Part shown: positions 1,949 to 20,639 of the stretch, in pieces
How positions within the stretch are numbered: the stretch's first letter is position 1
Layout of the letters: each line of letters begins with the position of its first letter
NCBI GenBank assembly: GCA_963775295.1
Contig: CAVZIK010000006.1
Span: 1,887,602-1,951,601 of the forward strand
DNA: 64,000 nt
Direction: 5' to 3'
Source of the DNA: an uncultured Actinomycetes bacterium
GTDB taxonomy: Bacteria > Actinomycetota > Thermoleophilia > RBG-16-64-13
Position numbers and translations under genes: made by a program
Notes under the pieces: generated by a model
What the model was told of the DNA's origin: nothing
The model's input: the letters and a program-made list of their open reading frames with translations, nothing else
Databases searched by the model: none

Positions 1949-2219
1949 CTGGTATCAAATGGCCGATCAATCCTGCCTAGTAAATCCACCAAGAGGATCT
2001 TTCCGGATTCATCCGGATGGCATAAGATCCGACGCTCCTTCGTGGGCAATATCTTAGTTGTTCCCTGTCATGAGAACGACCACAACTTAAACACGATTAT
2101 CCAAGCTGTCAAGCTGGTGGCGAGCATCTTGCCCCGGAAAAACACCCCTGCCTCCTGTAGCGAAGGCTCTCGTCTATTTTTTATGGCTCACCTCTTGCAC
2201 TGTTCCCAATTTGCGATAG

Positions 2220-2261
2220 AGTAGCGCTCGCTAGTAGCAAATGCTAGTAGCGAGCGCTACT
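2220..2261. promoter_or_regulatory. Perfect 42-bp inverted repeat (AGTAGCGCTCGCTAGTAGCA-AAT-GCTAGTAGCGAGCGCTACT). It lies in the 650-bp divergent intergenic region between etfB and the GlcD-like oxidase operon and is a candidate operator.
   Basis: Read directly from the sequence: 19-20-nt arms that are perfectly complementary around a 2-3-nt centre. It lies upstream of both divergent operons, next to an AT-rich stretch (2040-2225). Confidence 0.5.
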
Positions 2262-2617
2262 TACCAGGGGGGGTGCGCGAGCATGTCTGGTCGGTGCAAG
2301 GAGCAGGCGGGGAAGAGGATCCATCGCATCAGCGACGTGATGCGTCTCCGACGGCCAGAGCGTCTCTCGCTCATGATGCCTGTCGGTATGACGCTTGCCC
2401 GGTTGGGCGGCGTCACCAGTCTGTTCTCATCCGACACCATTTCCGGGCCGGCGCCGTCGGATCCCAGCCAATCCTGTCCCACAGCTACTTCCCGCGGACT
2501 ATCGCTGCTTTGGAAGGCTTCGTCTTGAGGTCCCGCGCCTCCTTGAGATCAAGCGGTTTTGTCGATCATGGGCTCTGCATGTAGCGCACTATTCGCACTG
2601 TGACAGGGAGGCCAAGC

Positions 2618-4093
2618 ATGGCTAAGGACGATCTCGTCGGCATCGTTGGCATGGAGAACATCCGGGATGACCCGGCCGTTCTGGAGGAGTACTCCGGTGG
2701 GTCTACGGAGAACACCCCAGTCGCCGTGGTCAGTCCGGCCAGCACCGACGAGGTCCAGCGGGTCGTCAAGTGGGCCAATGAAAGCCAGACTCCGCTTATA
2801 CCGGTGAGTTCAGGACCGCCCCATTTTCGGGGCGGGACCGTGCCCGGCATCAAGGGAGGCGTCGTCGTCGACCTGCGAAGGATGAACAGGATCATCCGCG
2901 TGGACGCCCATAATCGCGTCGCGATTGTTGAGCCGGGGGTCACCTTCGGCCAGCTTCAGTCCGAGCTTGCCACTAGCGGTCTCTCTGCCTACATGCCACT
3001 CCTTCCCCGTGCCTCCAAATCCGTGCTGGCCAGCGCTCTTGAACGTGACCCCATCCTGATGCCGAGCGTTCACTTTGACAGCACCGACCCGATGCTCTGC
3101 ACGGAGGTCGTGTTCGGCTCGGGTGACTATATGAGAACCGGCGAAGCCGCTGGGCCGGACACCCTGGAGCAGCAGTGGGAGATCAGCAAAGCGCAGATCA
3201 GCCCCTTCGGGCCCACCCAGATGGATCCGCAGAGGCTGCTGTCGGGCGCGCAGGGGACCATCGGTGTCGTCACCTGGATGTCCTTGAAGTGCCGGGAGAC
3301 GTCGGAACTCTATCGAGCATTCATGATCCCATCCGACAGCTTGGAGCCCTTGATCGAGCTTAGCTACCACCTGTCACGAATCCGCTTCACCGGCAAGATC
3401 TTCATCCTCAACGGGCTTAACCTCGCCGCCATAACCGGTGACGATCCTCGGGAGATAGCCGACTCGCGCGGTGGCTTACCCGCCTGGGTCATGTTTGTCG
3501 GCTTCGAGGGCTGCGGGCTCTTGCCGGAGGAAAAGGTCCAGTATCTGTCGGACGACCTTGGAGAACTGGCGGCTTCGTACGGCCTGCAACCCCAAACCGA
3601 GATCTCCGGAATCAAGGCGGAAGATTTCTACCTTCTCTTGATGGGACCTTCGACAGATCCCTACTGGAAGCTGAAATACAGGGGAGGCTTCGAAGATATC
3701 TTCTTCCTCAGCACGCAGGGCAAGACTCCAGAGCTCTCCGGAGTGATCCTGCAACTGGCCAGGCAGCTGGGATTCTCTCCCGAGAACATCGGCGCGTACA
3801 TCCAGCCGGTTGCACAGGGCACCAGCTGCCACTGCGAGTTCAACCTTTACTTCGATCCAGCAGATGACGCCGAATCAGATCTGATGCGCCGTTTGGAAGC
3901 TGAGGCAGTTGATCGCCTAGAAGAAGCGGGCGCCTTTTTCTCCAGGCCATACCCGGGATGGGTCGAGGTGGCGTACCGGCGTTCCCCCGACACCGCTGCC
4001 ATGCAGAAGAAGGTCAAGGACATCTTCGACCCCAACTGGATACTCAATCCTGGCAAGTTGTGCTTCGGGCCGGGCGAACTGAGGGGGAACTGA
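2618..4093 (+). CDS. FAD-binding (PCMH-type) oxidase, GlcD / D-2-hydroxyacid dehydrogenase-like
   Basis: FAD-binding domain motifs (VVSPASTDEVQRVVKWANE…PVSSGPPHFRGG) in a ~490-aa product. GGGAGG lies 5 nt before the ATG at 2618. The ORF track begins at 2600. Confidence 0.85.
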   Translation: MAKDDLVGIVGMENIRDDPAVLEEYSGGSTENTPVAVVSPASTDEVQRVVKWANESQTPLIPVSSGPPHFRGGTVPGIKGGVVVDLRRMNRIIRVDAHNRVAIVEPGVTFGQLQSELATSGLSAYMPLLPRASKSVLASALERDPILMPSVHFDSTDPMLCTEVVFGSGDYMRTGEAAGPDTLEQQWEISKAQISPFGPTQMDPQRLLSGAQGTIGVVTWMSLKCRETSELYRAFMIPSDSLEPLIELSYHLSRIRFTGKIFILNGLNLAAITGDDPREIADSRGGLPAWVMFVGFEGCGLLPEEKVQYLSDDLGELAASYGLQPQTEISGIKAEDFYLLLMGPSTDPYWKLKYRGGFEDIFFLSTQGKTPELSGVILQLARQLGFSPENIGAYIQPVAQGTSCHCEFNLYFDPADDAESDLMRRLEAEAVDRLEEAGAFFSRPYPGWVEVAYRRSPDTAAMQKKVKDIFDPNWILNPGKLCFGPGELRGN

Positions 4094-4094
4094 G

Positions 4095-5372
4095 ATGGCC
4101 TGGCAGGATTTCAAACATGATATGGAGCGCTGCACTCGCTGTTCGTACTGCAAATACATACCGTGGCGCTTCATCAAGGACTTCAACTATATGGAAGGCT
4201 GCCCGTCCGCTGCCAGGTACCACTGGCATGCCTTTGCGGCCGGCGGCAAGTACAACCTCTCATATGCTTTGATGCAGGGCGCCATCGAGATCGACGACAC
4301 CTTCCTGGACGTGGTGTACAGGTGCATGATGGACGGCTCCTGCGATATCGCCTGCAAGGTACAGCAGGATATCGAGCCGCTGCAGCACATGCAGGAACTC
4401 AGGATCGAATGCGTCGACCAAGGCTATCTGTTGCCCCAACATCAGCCCTATCTCAGAAGCCTGCGCAACGAAGACAACATGTTGCTCAAGCCGCGGGCGG
4501 AACGGGGAGATTGGGCGGCCGACCTCGACGTCAAACGGGTCACCCAAGAAAGCGCCGAAGTCGTGTACTTCGCCGGCTGCCGCTATTCCTATGACCAGGA
4601 ACTGTGGCCGATAGCCCGTGCAGGTGTGACGCTGCTGCAGTCGGCCGGAATAGATGTAGGCATTCTGGGGGCCGACGAAGCCTGCTGCGCGGGGCGCGCG
4701 TACGAAATGGGTTACGAAGGTGAGTTGACCAAGTTCGCTGAACACCATGCCGACACCCTCAAAACGGTGGGCGCCAAGACGCTGGTCACGCCTTGCTCAG
4801 ACTGCTACGGCACCTTCAAGGTCCTTTACGACAAGATCGGGAAGGACACAGGGGTCGAGGTCTACCACATCACTCAGTACCTGGAGAAGTTGATCCAGGA
4901 AGGCACGCTGCGGTTGAAGAAGCCCCTCGACCTCAAGGTGACCTATCACGACCCCTGCCATCTTGGCCGTTTGGGCGAACCGTGGATTCACTGGGAAGGG
5001 AAGGAATACAAGCCCGCGGGCATGCAGATCTGGCTGCACGATCCTCCCAAGAAGTATCGTCGGGGGACCAACGGTGTCTACGACACCCCCAGGAACATCA
5101 TCAAGAGCGTCCCGGGCGTGGAACTCGTTGAGATGTACCGCACCAGGGAGTACGCGTGGTGCTGCGGCGCCGGCGGCGGTGTGATCGACGCCTACCCGGA
5201 CTTTGCCGAGTGGGCGGCTACTGAGAGGCTCAAAGAGGCCAAGGCGGTTGGCGCCGAGGCGATCGTCAGCGCCTGCGGCTGGTGCAAGAGGAACTTCCTC
5301 AACGCAGCTAGACAGACCGGCGACGAGATCAAGGTCCTGGACATCATCGAACTGGTGCAGGAATCCATTTGA
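4095..5372 (+). CDS. Fe-S oxidoreductase with cysteine-rich CCG domains (GlcF / HdrD-like)
   Basis: Has a CTRCSYCKY ferredoxin-like motif and two CCG-type motifs (CSDCYGTF, …WCCGAGGG…). It is transcribed together with the flanking FAD oxidases. Confidence 0.85.
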   Translation: MAWQDFKHDMERCTRCSYCKYIPWRFIKDFNYMEGCPSAARYHWHAFAAGGKYNLSYALMQGAIEIDDTFLDVVYRCMMDGSCDIACKVQQDIEPLQHMQELRIECVDQGYLLPQHQPYLRSLRNEDNMLLKPRAERGDWAADLDVKRVTQESAEVVYFAGCRYSYDQELWPIARAGVTLLQSAGIDVGILGADEACCAGRAYEMGYEGELTKFAEHHADTLKTVGAKTLVTPCSDCYGTFKVLYDKIGKDTGVEVYHITQYLEKLIQEGTLRLKKPLDLKVTYHDPCHLGRLGEPWIHWEGKEYKPAGMQIWLHDPPKKYRRGTNGVYDTPRNIIKSVPGVELVEMYRTREYAWCCGAGGGVIDAYPDFAEWAATERLKEAKAVGAEAIVSACGWCKRNFLNAARQTGDEIKVLDIIELVQESI

Positions 5373-5406: not shown

Positions 5407-7020
5407 ATGAGATTGACTCAAGAAGAATACAAAGCACTGGAAGAAATCGTCGGCCCTGAGTACATCACTCAGGACCCCGTAATCATGGAGAGCTACTGCC
5501 AGGTCTGGGGCAACAAGGTGCAGTTCGGCGACAAGCGACACCGTCCGCCGGCTGCCGTGGTCTTGCCGGGAAGTACCGAAGAGATACAGGCGATCGTGCG
5601 GTTCTGCAATCAAGCCGGCATCTTGTTCAAACCCTCGGCCCGCGCCTTTGAATACGTGGCCACCTACCTCAGCGACGATCGCGGGATCCTGCTTGAGCTG
5701 AAGAGACTCAACCGCATACTGGAGATCGACCCCAAGAACATGCACGCGGTGGTCGAACCGTTCGTGACGGTCTATCAACTCATCGACGCCGCTAGCAAGC
5801 AGGGCTTCTACGTGGGCAAGCCGGGAGTGGGATACAGCGCCGCGGTGATCTCGCTGGCCTGCTGTCACCAGGAGATGACCATCTCCCAGCTCTTCACCAG
5901 CGGCTACGGGCGCAACGTGCTGGGTGCAGAGTGGGTCCTGCCGACGGGGGACATCCTGAACTTGGGTACGGCCAACCGAGAAGGAGGCTGGTTCTCGGGG
6001 GATGGGCCGGGCTTCAGCTTGAGGGGCATCCTGCGCGGGCGTGCCGGAGCCAACGGCGGGCATGGAGTCATCACCAAGTGTTCGGTGAAGCTCTATCCCT
6101 GGAACGCCCCCGCGCCCACGCAGTACCGATTGACAAGGGAGTCGGGCCAAGCCCTCTCGGCCGCCCAAATTGAGAAGGTGCCCGACACCTATCGCGTGAA
6201 CGTACTTACCTTCCCGGACACCGAGAAGATGATGAGGGCCGCTCAAGACATCGGCCACGCCGAGATCGCCTGCATTGTAGCCCCTGCCTATCTCAACACC
6301 GGCTTTCATCAGGAGGGCAACGACGAACAGTGGGCCAGTATGCGGGTCTCGCCCCCCGACCCGGACAAGATCGCGAGGACGGTGCCCGTGTTTGTCACCG
6401 GCCACTCGGCTCGGGAGCTTGAATATCGGGAAAAGGCCGTGATGTCGGCCATGGAGAAATGGGGCGGCCACCTCGACCCCGCGTGGAACAACGAGAAGAC
6501 AAAGGCGCAGATTTTCATGTACCAGATATGGTCCACAGGCGTAACGCTGAGGGCCACCGGTGACTTCATGTTGTCCACCCAGGGGACCGACGGCAGCCTG
6601 GAAAGTCAGCTGAAATATCGCGCCATAGAGTTCCAGGCTCTCCAACCCTTTGTTGAGGCAGGCGATACCGTCCACCCCAACATGGGCATGTCGTACCGTC
6701 CCATGGAGCACTTCTCACTTGGCTTCTCAGGCGGCATCGCCATGGGCATCGATCCCTGGGACCCCATATCGTACGCAGCGGCCAAGAAGTACTTGGACAT
6801 AGTCTACGACCCCGACGGGCCCTGCCGGAGCTTCGGATACACAAATCGGGGAGCCATGATGCAGGTGGAGGATATCGAGCATATCCACGAGAAGTGGGGC
6901 CCCATGTACGATCACGCCGATCTCTGGCTGCAAAAGGTGAGGAACATGCTCGACCCCAATCGCGTGGCTGATTGGTCGGCATACATACCGCCGGAGTACA
7001 GCAGCAACGAAACCAAATAG
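5407..7020 (+). CDS. Second FAD-linked oxidase (GlcD/GlcE-like paralogue)
   Basis: FAD_binding_4-like N-terminus (…AAVVLPGSTEEIQAIVRFCNQAGILFKP…). The ORF track starts at 5203, which overlaps the preceding gene. The ATG at 5407 (MRLTQEEYK) is the likely start. Confidence 0.8.
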   Translation: MRLTQEEYKALEEIVGPEYITQDPVIMESYCQVWGNKVQFGDKRHRPPAAVVLPGSTEEIQAIVRFCNQAGILFKPSARAFEYVATYLSDDRGILLELKRLNRILEIDPKNMHAVVEPFVTVYQLIDAASKQGFYVGKPGVGYSAAVISLACCHQEMTISQLFTSGYGRNVLGAEWVLPTGDILNLGTANREGGWFSGDGPGFSLRGILRGRAGANGGHGVITKCSVKLYPWNAPAPTQYRLTRESGQALSAAQIEKVPDTYRVNVLTFPDTEKMMRAAQDIGHAEIACIVAPAYLNTGFHQEGNDEQWASMRVSPPDPDKIARTVPVFVTGHSARELEYREKAVMSAMEKWGGHLDPAWNNEKTKAQIFMYQIWSTGVTLRATGDFMLSTQGTDGSLESQLKYRAIEFQALQPFVEAGDTVHPNMGMSYRPMEHFSLGFSGGIAMGIDPWDPISYAAAKKYLDIVYDPDGPCRSFGYTNRGAMMQVEDIEHIHEKWGPMYDHADLWLQKVRNMLDPNRVADWSAYIPPEYSSNETK

Positions 7021-14723: not shown

Positions 14724-14895
14724 GTGGAGGCTTGGTATCTACCAAGCATTCGGTCGGCGCACAGACGGACAATTGCGCACCGGCTCCCTCTGGATTGGAA
14801 GAAGCGCCGTATCCAGGGGGAGCCGGTTGTCTGGAGCGGCCTGGGCGGGCCGGGGGCCCGCAGCGTAGGAGGCCGCTTCCGGCAGCATCACGTTC

Positions 14896-15956: not shown

Positions 15957-18900
15957 CTATCCCACCTTCTTCGGAATAGCCGTGGTCCCGGCTCCAGGCG
16001 CCCTGCGGGCGCGGCGCCGAGCCAGTACCACTTCCAGATCCAGCACCTCCTCGGCTACGATGGCCAACCCCCGTTTGTGGTTGTTCTGCAGCCTCCCCCT
16101 GACCAGGAAGTAACTCGCCCGAGCGACCACCGGCGCGATCTTGGCCAGCTTGCTCTCAAAGCAGACGCACTCGAAGAGGCCGTAGGCGTCCTCTAAGGTC
16201 AGAAACATCGTCCTTTTTCCCGAGCGCATCCAGGGATTCTGGGCCCGCTCGTAGACACCGGCCACAGATACCGGCACCTCGTCTCCCATAGCGGGGAGTT
16301 CGTAGCTCATGCGTACACCCATCGACCTCAACTCTTCCTCATAGAGCTCCAACGGGTGAGCGCTCACGGTGAGTCCCATGAGTTCGAGCTCGGAGCGGAC
16401 CTTGTCCTCGAGACTCCACTGGCGTTCCAGCCCGGCGCGGCTGGGCGGGGAAAAAAACGCCCGCAGTTGGCCGCGCCTCTGTCCGGACGACCCGGCCAGC
16501 GCCTCCAAACGATCGTGCAGAAGGGGTAGACGCCAGAGCAGTTCGGTGCGGTCGGGTTCCAGCGAGTCGAAGGCACCCACCCGGATGAGGTTCTCGGCCA
16601 CAGGGTAGTCGATGCGGGTACGGAGGTAGAAGTCCTCGAAGCTGGTGAAGGGGCCGTGGCGGCGCTCCTTCTCGATGCGGTCGAGGGAGCGCTCGCCCAT
16701 CTGCTTGAGGTAGGAGAAACCCACCCGTAGGGCCCGGCCGGCATCCGGGGCGATGCCGCAACTGGGTGCGAGGCAGGCTCCGGGCTCCACGCCGCCGCGG
16801 GCGCGGGGCGCGCGGGGGAGAAGAAGGTCGCCGGGAAGCAGCGGCGCTTCGCGCGGTGGCACGGGGGCGCCGGCCCATCTCTGCTCCGGCGCCGCTCGCA
16901 GGGCCTCGGCATAGGCCAGCTCGCCTTCCTGCTCGGCCCCCAACTCGGCCAGGTCGGACTCGGTGAGGCCCCAGTTGCGCTCGGCGTTCCAGACCTGGGC
17001 GAAGGGGTCGTAGGGGCCTGCGGCCCCACCGGTGTGTGTCGCCGTCTCATCGGCCTGCGCCTCACTACCAGGCAGGCCTCCCGCGGCTCCCGCTCCCAGC
17101 AGGCCCGGCTCACTCGAGACCTCCGGCGGCGTGTCGCCCTCCACCGTGAACCCGCGCCCCGACAGGTTGATGTCCATAGACCTCACCTCCAGACCAAAGC
17201 GGCGGGCGTCGTTCAGTACCGTCCGCGGGGTGTAGAAGCCCATGGGGTAGTTGTTCAGCACGGCGCACAGGAACTCGGCCGGGTAGTAGGCCTTGAGGTA
17301 GGCGGTGGCGTAGCTGATGACGGCGAAACACACCGAGTGGCTCTTGTTGAAGCCATAGGCGGCGAAGCCCTCCAGTTGGCGGAAGACCTCCCTGGCGGCG
17401 TTCTCCGGGACTCCCCGCTCGACGGCGCGGCTGATGAAGGTCTCGCCGATCTTGGCCATCTCCTCCCGGCTGCGGTCGCGGGTCATGGCCCGGCGAAGGG
17501 AGTCGGCGTCGGCCAGGTCGAACCCGGCCACCAGTTGCGCCACCCGCAGCACCTGCTCTTGGTAGAGGATGACGCCGTAGGTGTCGCCCAGGGCTTCGGC
17601 CATAGCGGGGTGGGGAAGGACGACAGGCTCGATGCCCCAGCGCCGGTCGATGAAGGGACCGATCATCTCGGCCTCCAGTGGACCGGGGCGGTAGAGGGCG
17701 ATGGCGGCGATGATGTCGTCGAAATCCCGCTCCTGCAGGCGGCTGGCCAGGTTGCGCTGCCCGGCGGATTCCAGTTGGAACAGCCCGATAGAACCTCCGT
17801 TGCTGATGATCTCGTACGCGGCGGGGTCGTCGGGCGGCAGCTCGTAGGGCCGGATCCGTCTCCCCGTCCGCTGCCTGATGATATGTACGCACTCCGACAC
17901 GGCGGAATGGGTCCTTAGTCCGAGGATGTCCATCTTGACCAGGCCCAGGGCGGCAACGTCGTCCTTGTTGAACTGCAGGACCACCACCCCTTTGGCCGCC
18001 CATTGGAGGGGCGCGTAAAAAGGGATCTCTCTATCGGCGATGACGAACCCCCCCAGGTGAGTTCCTAGGTGCATGGGGAACGAGTCCAACCGCTCCACCA
18101 AATCGAGGAAGCGCCCCCACCGGGACTCGTCCTGCAGCGGGGAATCCTTCAACTCGGGCCAAGCGCCGCCCAGGTACTCGCGCATGCGGGCGGCGTCGCC
18201 ATGCCGAGGGACGTGTTTGGCCAGGGCGTTGATCTCCGTGGGGGCGAACCCCAGGGCTTCGGCCACGACCCGCACCGCCGAACGCGGAGACATGGTGTTC
18301 ACGTTGGCAACCACGGCTACGTTCTCCGATCCGAAGGTCTTGTAGATGTGGTCTATCACCTCATCCCGTCGGGAAGAGCAGAAATCGACGTCGATGTCGG
18401 GCATCTCTCGACGGTTGGGATTGAGGAACCGCTCGAACAGCAGGTTGTGGCGGATGGGTTCCGACGCGGTGATGTCGAGCGCGTGACACACGATGGAGTT
18501 GCCGGCGCTGCCCCTCCCTGAGCAGGCGATCCCTTGGGTCCGCGCCCATCGGACGATGTCGTGCACCACCAAGAAATAATGGGCGAACTCCATCTGCTGG
18601 ATCATGCAGAGCTCCTTCTCCAGAAGCTCGACGGCTCGCGGCGGCACCGGCTTGTATTTGCGGGGGACGCCGCGAAAGCACCGCTTGGCGAGAAGTGAGT
18701 ACGCCGTCTCGCCGACAGGGACGTCGACCTTGGGAAAGTGGTAGGTGTCCAACTCCAAGTCGACGGTGCAGCGCTGGGCGATATGCCACGCAGCATCGAG
18801 GGGGGAAGGATCTGCTGATGCAGCCATACCCGGGTTGCGCTTCGCCGGGGCTCCAGAGCCAACGGTCACACGCGAGGTGAGTAACGTCCCGGAAAGTCCC

Positions 18901-20639
18901 GGACTAGGTGTCCTATCCTCGCCCCTGGATGATGCAATTGCTGTTGCATTATAGCCATTATGCAATACAGGAGGTCGACAGGCATCCGTGAAGGCCGACA
19001 CCACCTCCACCGCCCCCCGCACTCGGTCTCTCTCTCGCTCTCCTGGCAAACCCGATTCCCCCTCCAATAATGCAAGTTCTGTTGCAATGCAATAAGTATG
19101 CATACCAACAGCCTGGTCAACGGGTGTCACCAGAGAGAGCAAAGCCTCCGCCTCAAGCTTCAGTTGAACTTTAGACTTCAGACAACGTGCGCCAGGGACG
19201 ACGTCTGGGTAGCCGGAGAGTGGTTTATCGTGACCGGCGGCGCGGCATATCAGGTGGATGGCGCGATCGGATGCCCCAGCATAATGGGCATTACAAGTCA
19301 GTACGGTGGGCAGGCGGCACTCCGCGGCCAGGTGGGTGAGGTCGAGGCAGTAGGTGAGGCAAGAGAGGCGCCAGGGCCGACCGTCGTGGTGGAACCCTAC
19401 ATCATAGTCTGAGGGATTGAGACGCTGAGGTTGACCCTCGGGAAGGTCAGGACGACCGACGTGAGAACGGGGTTTGGGAGGACGGACTGGGACAAACGTC
19501 CGCGTTGACTCGGATATTGCTGCAGACTTTGTTGCAATGCAATGTGATTGCATTTGGGCAGATGGAGGTTCGGCTGGGCGAACACCGGCGCGGGTAGGCG
19601 CGGGGTCGGCGATCAGTGCCGGGGTTGCGGACGTTGCAGTGTGCTCCACCCCGATGGTGTCCGGGGCCGGCGTAGCCCGGTGCCGAAGTCGTCCGCCCTC
19701 TGCGCGGATCTTTTCGTAAACGGGAGACCCATACTGGCCGGCGTGAGCCTCTTGGTGGGGTTCGTACCCGAAATACTGTAGTTCGACGTAAAGGTGACCA
19801 GGGCCGAAGATATCGCGCAGGTGGAGGAGGACGGCGCCGGCATCCCGGGTGCGGCCGAGGTCTGTGAGGTAGCCCAACTCTCCGTGGCGGCATCCGGTGA
19901 GGCAGATGAGACCGTTGGCATGAACGCGCAACGAGTCCACGGTGACGGTGGGCGGATGCTCCCGTTCGGGATCGGCCAGGTGTGCGGCAGAGATGATGCG
20001 GCAAAGATTGGCATAGCCCTCTCGGGTTTCGGCGAGCAGGACAAGATGGTGCGGATCATGGGGGGAGACGCCGCTTGTTGCGGCAAGGGCGTCGGACGGC
20101 GAGGGTGAATGTTCGACCTGAGGGAGCAGCGAGTCCACCCGGACCTCGGCTCCGAAAATCGGCTTGATACCGCGCTTGCTGCAGGCCTTGGCGAAACGTA
20201 CCGCGCCGTAGAGGCCGTCGTGATCTGTAAGGGCCAAGGCCGGCTGTCCCAACTCGGCCGTGCGGGACACCAACTCTTCGATGCGGCTGCCGCCGTCGAG
20301 GAACGAGAAGTTGGAGTGGACGTGCAGGTGGACAAACGGGGAAGCGCCGGTCGCTGTGTCTGCGTCGAAATCGACGGCATCGCAGGTGACGGGCAACTCG
20401 TGCAGCTTGGGCGCCCGGGTGTAGCCGAACTTGTGGACGGCGCCGTGGGCGGTAGGTCCCGGTCCGCCGATCTGGGACTTGGGACCGGGATCCGCCGGCC
20501 CTTTGGCCCAGGCCTTTTTGGGGGCGGCGTTACCGAGTTGCCGCGCATAGTCCTGACTTGGCGGGATTCTTTGCACCGGGAACCGGCTCGACTGACTGTC
20601 GGAAGGACGGCCATCGTGTGCGGTATCGCTCGCTGTCAT
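15957..20639 (-). CDS. dnaE2: Error-prone DNA polymerase DnaE2 (ImuC-like Pol III alpha homologue) with three long low-complexity insertions
   Basis: PHP domain (HLHVHSNFSFLDGG…LALTDHDGLYG), polymerase core and a C-terminal OB fold. No tau-binding C-terminal extension. 1560 aa, against ~1050-1100 aa typical. Tandem LexA boxes lie upstream. Confidence 0.85.
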   Translation of the reverse strand: MTASDTAHDGRPSDSQSSRFPVQRIPPSQDYARQLGNAAPKKAWAKGPADPGPKSQIGGPGPTAHGAVHKFGYTRAPKLHELPVTCDAVDFDADTATGASPFVHLHVHSNFSFLDGGSRIEELVSRTAELGQPALALTDHDGLYGAVRFAKACSKRGIKPIFGAEVRVDSLLPQVEHSPSPSDALAATSGVSPHDPHHLVLLAETREGYANLCRIISAAHLADPEREHPPTVTVDSLRVHANGLICLTGCRHGELGYLTDLGRTRDAGAVLLHLRDIFGPGHLYVELQYFGYEPHQEAHAGQYGSPVYEKIRAEGGRLRHRATPAPDTIGVEHTATSATPALIADPAPTRAGVRPAEPPSAQMQSHCIATKSAAISESTRTFVPVRPPKPRSHVGRPDLPEGQPQRLNPSDYDVGFHHDGRPWRLSCLTYCLDLTHLAAECRLPTVLTCNAHYAGASDRAIHLICRAAGHDKPLSGYPDVVPGARCLKSKVQLKLEAEALLSLVTPVDQAVGMHTYCIATELALLEGESGLPGERERDRVRGAVEVVSAFTDACRPPVLHNGYNATAIASSRGEDRTPSPGLSGTLLTSRVTVGSGAPAKRNPGMAASADPSPLDAAWHIAQRCTVDLELDTYHFPKVDVPVGETAYSLLAKRCFRGVPRKYKPVPPRAVELLEKELCMIQQMEFAHYFLVVHDIVRWARTQGIACSGRGSAGNSIVCHALDITASEPIRHNLLFERFLNPNRREMPDIDVDFCSSRRDEVIDHIYKTFGSENVAVVANVNTMSPRSAVRVVAEALGFAPTEINALAKHVPRHGDAARMREYLGGAWPELKDSPLQDESRWGRFLDLVERLDSFPMHLGTHLGGFVIADREIPFYAPLQWAAKGVVVLQFNKDDVAALGLVKMDILGLRTHSAVSECVHIIRQRTGRRIRPYELPPDDPAAYEIISNGGSIGLFQLESAGQRNLASRLQERDFDDIIAAIALYRPGPLEAEMIGPFIDRRWGIEPVVLPHPAMAEALGDTYGVILYQEQVLRVAQLVAGFDLADADSLRRAMTRDRSREEMAKIGETFISRAVERGVPENAAREVFRQLEGFAAYGFNKSHSVCFAVISYATAYLKAYYPAEFLCAVLNNYPMGFYTPRTVLNDARRFGLEVRSMDINLSGRGFTVEGDTPPEVSSEPGLLGAGAAGGLPGSEAQADETATHTGGAAGPYDPFAQVWNAERNWGLTESDLAELGAEQEGELAYAEALRAAPEQRWAGAPVPPREAPLLPGDLLLPRAPRARGGVEPGACLAPSCGIAPDAGRALRVGFSYLKQMGERSLDRIEKERRHGPFTSFEDFYLRTRIDYPVAENLIRVGAFDSLEPDRTELLWRLPLLHDRLEALAGSSGQRRGQLRAFFSPPSRAGLERQWSLEDKVRSELELMGLTVSAHPLELYEEELRSMGVRMSYELPAMGDEVPVSVAGVYERAQNPWMRSGKRTMFLTLEDAYGLFECVCFESKLAKIAPVVARASYFLVRGRLQNNHKRGLAIVAEEVLDLEVVLARRRARRAPGAGTTAIPKKVG

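Follow-up and report, generated by a model that had tools for sequence, protein, structure and literature searches.

A candidate TetR-family operator array beside a decayed gene stub precedes an FAD-oxidase operon in an uncultured actinomycete

We analyzed a 64,000-nt stretch of DNA (the window; positions 1,887,602 to 1,951,601 of contig CAVZIK010000006.1) from an uncultured Actinomycetes bacterium of the Thermoleophilia, focusing on a 42-bp inverted repeat at 2220-2261 between the divergent etfBA genes and an FAD-oxidase operon. Judged from sequence, this element is probably an operator array of a TetR-family repressor, for which the protein P0071, encoded outside the window, is the candidate in this genome; we put the probability of this reading at about 0.75. 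An earlier reading of the same letters (the first-pass annotation) had already seen an operator here, and this idea is supported, since the sequence motif is kept in syntenic relatives, always in 5' control regions. The element thus behaves, by comparative sequence analysis, as a putative cis-regulatory protein-binding site.

The inverted repeat is an array of overlapping 16-bp dyads

The inverted repeat at exactly 2220-2261 is real and far beyond chance. Its arms (2220-2239 and 2242-2261), with 2 nt between them, are complementary at 19 of 20 positions (95%), the exception being G2234, which faces G2247 in a G.G clash. The 42-bp element is therefore a near-palindrome, and the word "flawless" first applied to it was too strong. 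The sub-repeats described within it are present, GCTAGTAGC at 2230-2238 and 2243-2251, and AGCGCT at 2223-2228 and 2253-2258. Barring one overlapping repeat with 72% complementarity, this is the strongest short-range inverted repeat in the 64 kb, and its 19-mer half-site occurs at a single location in the window (0 chance matches expected).

The symmetry can be resolved into a near-palindromic operator array (2220..2261, no strand) in which three 16-bp dyads of the form AGTAGYG-NN-CRCTAsT start 13 bp apart and so overlap; in the 13-nt register the array reads AGTAGCGCTCGCT / AGTAGCAAATGCT / AGTAGCGAGCGCT / ACT. The first dyad, P1 (2220-2235, AGTAGCGCTCGCTAGT), has 1 mismatch to AGTAGYGNNCRCTACT; P2 (2233-2248, AGTAGCAAATGCTAGT) has 3 mismatches, and P3 (2246-2261, AGTAGCGAGCGCTACT) has none. 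P1 and P3, 26 bp apart, are thus near-perfect, and P2 between them is weak. At no more than 1 mismatch the dyad pattern gave 6 matches in the 64 kb, all of them at 2220-2261, against 0.51 expected. The overlap explains the imperfection of the palindrome: adjacent dyads share AGT, which forces a G where symmetry wants a C and so produces the G.G clash, and P3 is perfect because the last dyad has no overlapping neighbour. A dyad-symmetric unit of about 16 bp is the size expected per TetR dimer (15-17 bp), and the window dyads have this size.

The 52-nt segment around the element has, as single-stranded DNA, a fold energy of -21.7 kcal/mol (z = -8.2) that none of 200 shuffles equalled, and the repeat is among the longest close-spaced ones in the window. 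Both facts could speak for a structural element, either a DNA cruciform or an RNA hairpin acting as a terminator, an attenuator, or a processing or stability signal. We regard such a role as improbable. No terminator-like site was called in 1800-2800, and there is no T/U tract on either side of the stem. The missing T run and the position between divergent promoters, not downstream of a gene, rule out an intrinsic terminator. Rfam gave no meaningful match for 1800-2800. Further, the homologous sites in relatives, with z values between -1.8 and +0.3 where the window has -8.2, fold like shuffles, yet they retain the motif and with it the stem-weakening G.G clash. Since the motif is kept and the hairpin is not, selection seems to act on the sequence and not on the fold.

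The motif recurs in 5' control regions of one gene set in relatives

We scanned metagenomes with the three-unit pattern AGTAG-N6-CTAGTAG-N6-CTAGTAG and examined related loci, with L numbers denoting the fetched loci of related genomes and P numbers the proteins obtained from searches. The scan gave more than 120 matches, mostly tandem-repeat junk. The G+C-rich, non-tandem matches all adjoin a TetR gene or etfB (6 of 6) and form one family; two of them (L067, L106) stand before etfB, and in four (L026, L056, L065, L104) the start of a divergent tetR is about 45 nt away. The array upstream of etfB was found in L013, L014/L106, L067 and L149/151/152, and in L013 and L014, where some 28 nt separate it from the etfB -35 element downstream, it reads AGTAGCG..TGCTAGTAGTG..CACTAGTAGGAACCACTATC.

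Further tetR loci (L140, L141, L142 and L144-147) were found by homologue search and context look-ups. All 11 fetched loci with a tetR orthologue (L026, L056, L065, L104, L140, L141, L142 and L144-147) carry the motif between tetR and a divergent TRAP or AFOR operon, a position we call site 1; in 8 of the 11 a second copy lies between tetR and a URO-D-like operon (site 2). At the tetR loci 4-6 pattern matches were observed against 0.01 expected. Each relative genome holds 2-3 copies of the motif, every one in the 5' control regions of one gene set.

Eleven sites together give the consensus cTTGCrTTtgct AGTAGCGTrTGCT AGTAGTGcnCaCT AGTAGGnnnCaCT ATc. Every consensus site has at least one dyad with no more than 2 mismatches, and in all except L142 the best dyad has 0-1. 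The window operator retains the core bases conserved in the family (AGTAG / CTAsTAG / CTACT), and its dyads P1 and P3 (0-1 mismatches) are closer to the pattern than those of the etfB sites of relatives (1-4). In ungapped comparison with 14 family sites the window copy is identical at 22-31 of 42 positions in either orientation, a range that does not distinguish between strand orientations or site types. The first-pass annotation had proposed that degeneracy of the palindrome in syntenic relatives would count against regulation. The long palindrome is indeed degenerate there; what is conserved is the motif with its 13-bp period.

These distributions also bear on the view that the element is a dispersed REP/MITE-like repeat (repetitive extragenic palindrome or miniature inverted-repeat transposable element) unrelated to regulation. 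It is palindromic and intergenic, and each relative genome holds a handful of copies, as such a repeat would. Against this, the window has one site in 64 kb, none of 185,579 species-representative genomes contains an exact match to the half-site 19-mer, the copies in relatives are all placed before genes of one set, and no flanking repeat structure was found. The single site and the unmatched 19-mer rule out a REP-like repeat; the dispersed copies that the first-pass annotation named as a refutation did not turn up, and we give the whole idea next to no credence.

As a separate observation, L065, L104, L026 and L140 share a conserved GGAAGGAGGTyCT block in the long leader of the TRAP dctP gene. 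It stands downstream of site 1 on the dctP side, at a distance of about 100-150 nt, and in L065, L104 and L140 the dctP start codon follows it after roughly 80-135 nt.

A TetR-family gene adjoins the motif in relatives

The gene divergent from site 1 belongs to the TetR family (PF00440 TetR_N, E 3.9e-9), and TetR_N was detected in nearly all of the 111 homologues found. The motif in the 5' region of tetR, shared with a divergent target, is the classic autoregulatory layout, and it is present in 11 relative loci. The regulator, described at first as unknown, can thus be assigned in kind to the TetR family, given that tetR adjoins the motif in 11 of 11 loci with this architecture. Another transcription factor might own the site, the adjacency of tetR being incidental to membership of a shared regulon; the position upstream of the etfB -35 element in relatives, unusual for a repressor, would fit this. 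We consider it very unlikely, in view of the motif in the 5' region of tetR at 11 of 11 orthologue loci and its absence from the other context of a 55%-identical paralogue (L143). No other regulator gene recurs beside the motif.

In the window itself, the earlier statement that no transcription factor gene is nearby holds as tested: the large open reading frames (ORFs) have no DNA-binding regulator domain, with ORFs under about 180 aa not all screened, and tblastn with the TetR protein against the window gave no match. The candidate cognate orthologue P0071 nevertheless appears, on strong but indirect evidence from sequence records, to be encoded elsewhere on the window's own 3.56-Mb contig: P0112, which is 100% identical to the window's oxidase, and P0071 are each recorded on a single 3,560,348-bp contig. 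Contigs with a member of P0071's 90% cluster carry the intact locus AFOR <- site 1 -> tetR - site 2 -> URO-D. P0071 and the TetR orthologue P0031 have the recognition helix SEPTIYRTFRNR in common, and P0001 has SEPTLYRTFRNR.

The closest relative has both tetR (L140, 527-544 kb) and an etfBA-oxidase operon with the operator (L013, 874-888 kb) on one 1.37-Mb contig; about 340 kb separate the two, and the regulator would therefore act in trans there too. The tetR locus (L140 13362-16639; L141; L142) lacks etfBA but holds a paralogous trio of its own, FAD oxidase-CCG-FAD oxidase, with 43% identity to the window's oxidase. The flavoprotein for both oxidase sets may come from the etfBA operon, which is unlinked and has the same operator. 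The TRAP binding protein of the window and the one linked to tetR share 24% identity, which rules them out as orthologues.

Divergent gene order in the window is derived

The flanking genes are as first described: etfA (125-1135) and etfB (1142-1948) on the minus strand, and FAD oxidase-CCG/Fe-S-FAD oxidase on the plus strand. The presumed target operon begins with the FAD_binding_4 oxidase (2618-4093). Next are the CCG/Fe-S protein (4095-5372) and another FAD_binding_4 protein, which ends at 7020; after it come genes for an SDR, MmgE/PrpD, a CCG-Fe-S protein and TRAP DctPQM, up to 14723 on the same strand.

Relatives of the oxidase were collected by a protein-guided scan (19 loci, L001-L019). 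In 13 of these 19 the order etfB>etfA>oxidase>CCG is co-directional, with a 25-200-nt spacer between etfA and the oxidase; among them are many Dehalococcoidia and, at 80-90% identity, the closest Actinomycetota genomes. That etfA and etfB of the window point away from the oxidase operon is therefore the result of a derived inversion and not the ancestral design. Of the 669-bp spacer, only 2568-2617 and the etfB leader and promoter are homologous to relatives. Any rearrangement history requires at least a junction at about 2567/2568 and another inside 2113-2219. Neither a single-inversion nor a two-inversion course could be fitted, because the sequence left of etfA (1-141) matches nothing informative. 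Loci of the L149 type were rejected as an intermediate arrangement with a URO-D stub, as no URO-D or p138 similarity was found there. In L013 and L001, etfA, oxidase and CCG are split by apparent frameshifts in these metagenome-assembled genomes, probably through sequencing errors.

The "untranslated leader" is a decayed URO-D-like gene stub

Between the operator and the oxidase start codon lie 356 nt, taken in the first-pass annotation for an untranslated leader of ~340 nt. We found instead that a URO-D-like gene has left its decayed 5' stub at 2262-2567, where the sequence matches the N-terminus of URO-D-like proteins (2277..2557, plus strand; tblastn and shuffles). Window 2277/2283-2468, which lacks 19 aa internally, is 32-35% identical to URO-D-like residues 1-84, and a second collinear piece in another frame (2483-2557) corresponds to residues 134-158. 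In tblastn against the whole window these matches have E values of 1e-10 to 1e-6, and their 48-54 bits compare with a maximum of 23 in 300 shuffles. The former start codon is probably ATG 2283, which lies 22 nt after the operator; the corresponding gap in L065 is 20 nt. The matching intact gene is the URO-D-like gene after site 2, which in relatives is found only beside tetR.

A riboswitch or other structured leader at 2262-2617, for which a covariance scan had been recommended, was ruled out: the best Rfam match (E = 0.73) was to a eukaryotic long non-coding RNA, the fold was ordinary (z = 0.06), conservation was absent, and the URO-D match accounts for the sequence. In addition, the etfBA loci of relatives contain no homologue of 2262-2567, which also shows no coding G+C pattern and no repeats.

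From its context, the window element looks like a site-2-type operator and promoter that still carries the decayed remnant of its native gene, now joined to the oxidase leader. We assign it to site 2 because the URO-D stub, the gap to the start codon and a -10-like TAnAGT match the site-2 context. This hexamer, TAGAGT at 2217-2222, overlaps the first 3 nt of the operator, and TAnAGT stands at the same place in 4 of 4 site-2-type operators (L065 TAAAGT, L141 TACAGT, L140 TAGAGT, L056 TAGAGT). The proximal oxidase leader, with the ribosome-binding site AGGGAGG (2605-2611), occupies 2568..2617 on the plus strand and is homologous to the etfA-oxidase spacer of relatives.

We wondered whether the operator is a relic, a rearrangement scar carried in with the URO-D stub that controls nothing, its symmetry being merely historical. 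The locus is rearranged, with etfBA inverted against the co-directional majority of relatives; a pseudogene stub abuts the site, extra sequence separates the site from the etfB promoter, no strong promoter overlaps it, and some relatives have no operator at etfB. The comparison with the stub points the other way. The stub is heavily decayed, by a deletion, a frameshift and a fall to 32-35% identity, whereas the core consensus bases of the operator are intact and two of its dyads fit the pattern better than the etfB sites of relatives do; the operator is therefore apparently still under selection. A tetR orthologue with the same recognition helix also seems to be retained in the genome. On balance we hold a relic to be unlikely.

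How the operator came to precede the oxidase operon can be suggested only tentatively. The operator and promoter may have been a portable cassette that rewired the regulon: a site-2-type unit, together with the first ~160 URO-D-like codons, would have been placed before the oxidase operon at the etfBA inversion. In such a course the dyad symmetry may itself have served as a recombination substrate, because two copies of a palindrome are direct and inverted repeats at once, and the operator may later have been sharpened into two perfect dyads for a divergent control region. The locus could then stand as a clean natural case of regulatory rewiring that leaves a gene stub, and an operator-plus-stub transplant would be modestly interesting. 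It also carries a caution, that a long "untranslated leader" beside a striking palindrome can be a pseudogene fragment.

Promoters and a proposed mechanism

On the minus strand, the etfB promoter (2084..2112) consists of TTGACA (2112-2107), a 17-nt spacer and TAAGTT (2089-2084). Five genomes share the -35 block CTTGACAG without change, and in all of them the -10 element has the form TAnnnT. The etfB 5' leader follows (1949..2083, minus strand), with a proximal part (~1949-2015) conserved in relatives. The stretch from the etfB -35 element to the operator (2113..2219, no strand) is 107 nt long, against 28 nt in relatives, so the window has about 80 extra nt here. It holds the -35 element of a candidate rightward promoter (2195..2222, plus strand), made up of TTGCAC (2195-2200), a 16-nt spacer and the TAGAGT hexamer.

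From the layout of these elements we infer binding, repression rather than activation, the controlled promoter, the stoichiometry and the ligand, as follows. One TetR dimer would occupy each 16-bp dyad, with two dimers on P1 and P3 and possibly a third on P2, a stoichiometry suggested by the anatomy of the array. The ligand-free repressor would occlude the promoter whose TAGAGT overlaps the operator edge, and would thereby block rightward transcription through the URO-D stub into the FAD-oxidase operon. A metabolite, presumably related to the TRAP/oxidase substrate, would release the repressor.

Several observations weigh against an operator array acting in this way. The regulator gene is not in the window, and the co-residence of P0071 rests on the matching 3,560,348-bp records and not on contig sequence. 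The rightward promoter is weak, with 3/6 and 4/6 consensus matches; it was not called by the promoter scan, and its spacing differs from that in L144. The operator lies well upstream of the strong etfB promoter, both in the window (107 nt) and in relatives (28 nt), which is not the classical position for occlusion; at 107 nt from the -35 element, control of etfBA is therefore doubtful. In addition, L001 and L148 (88% oxidase identity) have no operator upstream of etfB, where a divergent DUF169 gene and a paralogous oxidase/CCG cluster are found instead. Control of the operon by this regulator is therefore not universal and differs within the clade.

The spacer around these promoters had also been described as containing an AT-rich island. 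It proved to be only mildly AT-rich promoter DNA: where the flanking genes have a G+C content of ~0.62, this stretch ranges from 0.46 to 0.55 when averaged over 100 nt and from 0.40 to 0.60 over 30 nt. The 60-aa ORF noted there (2042-2224) exists, and as a gene it looks spurious: it has no family match, its codon-position G+C values (0.49/0.36/0.61) are atypical beside those of real genes (~0.62/0.45/0.75), and its region, which overlaps the etfB promoter, is absent from relatives. Pfam gave no matches for six spacer ORFs; with no coding G+C pattern either, small genes in the spacer were ruled out, save for the one frame that is the URO-D remnant.

Within the etfB leader, 21-24 nt at 1981-2004 (minus strand; GGAAAGATCCTCTTGGTGGAT, 'GKILLVDL') are about 90% identical to the 5' coding region of AFOR (L140 4371-4394, L144 517-537). 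An AFOR gene stub is unsupported, with 8 residues matching at E 0.3-0.9, and the stretch is either a chance likeness or a second tiny gene stub.

Comparison with known systems

The nearest described parallel is Bacillus FadR (YsiA), a TetR-family protein that binds as two dimers to two overlapping 16-bp pseudo-inverted repeats and represses an operon in which etfB-etfA are included (PMC5397183). It is autoregulated and represses the fad regulon (PMC5397183; PDB 5GP9/5GPC, 3WHB). The systems thus share the TetR family, an autoregulatory layout, overlapping 16-bp repeats and etfB-etfA in the regulon. FadR is also the best solved-structure match of P0031, a remote one (5gp9, E 2.7e-9, 40 bits), and its Bacillus-type NCBIfam model, NF053878, is the best NCBIfam match of P0071. 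At 42.9 bits against a cut-off of 200, however, P0071 is not an equivalog. The FadR operator GATGAATGAATACTCATTCAT is unrelated in sequence to that of the window; its repeats are offset by ~4-5 bp within 21 bp, as opposed to 13 bp over 42-45 bp here. Finally, its targets are beta-oxidation genes, whereas here they would be GlcD/GlcF-like oxidoreductases, TRAP, AFOR and URO-D-like genes.

Long operators that take more than one TetR dimer have precedents. EthR has a 55-bp multi-dimer operator, and QacR-IR1 is a long palindromic one accommodating more than one dimer (cited as ref. 18 in PMC5397183). The window element resembles both in being long, palindromic and roomy enough for more than one dimer. 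Unlike QacR, whose single 28-bp repeat nests its dyads, it has dyads 13 or 26 bp apart; unlike both, its multi-dimer stoichiometry is a suggestion from anatomy, and its regulator is unlinked to this target.

On the side of the regulated genes, lctBCD of Acetobacterium woodii encodes an Etf-dependent lactate dehydrogenase under the GntR-type regulator LctA. The ancestral order of the relatives, etfB-etfA-(GlcD-like FAD oxidase), matches that of lctBCD. Here the oxidase is followed by CCG/Fe-S and a second FAD_binding_4 protein, the regulator would be of the TetR type acting in trans, and the window oxidase lies far below the GlcD cut-off (60.6 bits against 568). Among the proteins of the TRAP/AFOR, URO-D-like and oxidase gene sets, none reaches any curated family cut-off.

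The element is of an ordinary kind, TetR operators being commonplace; no account of the regulator, the motif or the regulon turned up in the literature searched. The operator consensus and a named TetR orthologue (the P0071/P0031 family) turn an anonymous palindrome into a testable regulon. As read here, it would tie together three gene sets in uncultured Actinomycetota/Thermoleophilia, namely TRAP/AFOR, the URO-D-like genes and the Etf-dependent GlcD/GlcF-like oxidase. The repressor ligand, once found, would point to the substrate of the whole pathway.

Other features of the window

A DnaE-like ORF of 1560 aa lies at 15957-20639 on the minus strand. Its PHP domain ends at residue 288 and its pol III alpha domain starts at 650; the ~360 residues between them have no assignment and are possibly an inserted element. 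At 14779-14827, between the convergent TRAP dctM and universal stress protein genes, there is a second inverted repeat with 17-nt arms, 94% complementarity and a 15-nt loop, which is likely a terminator.

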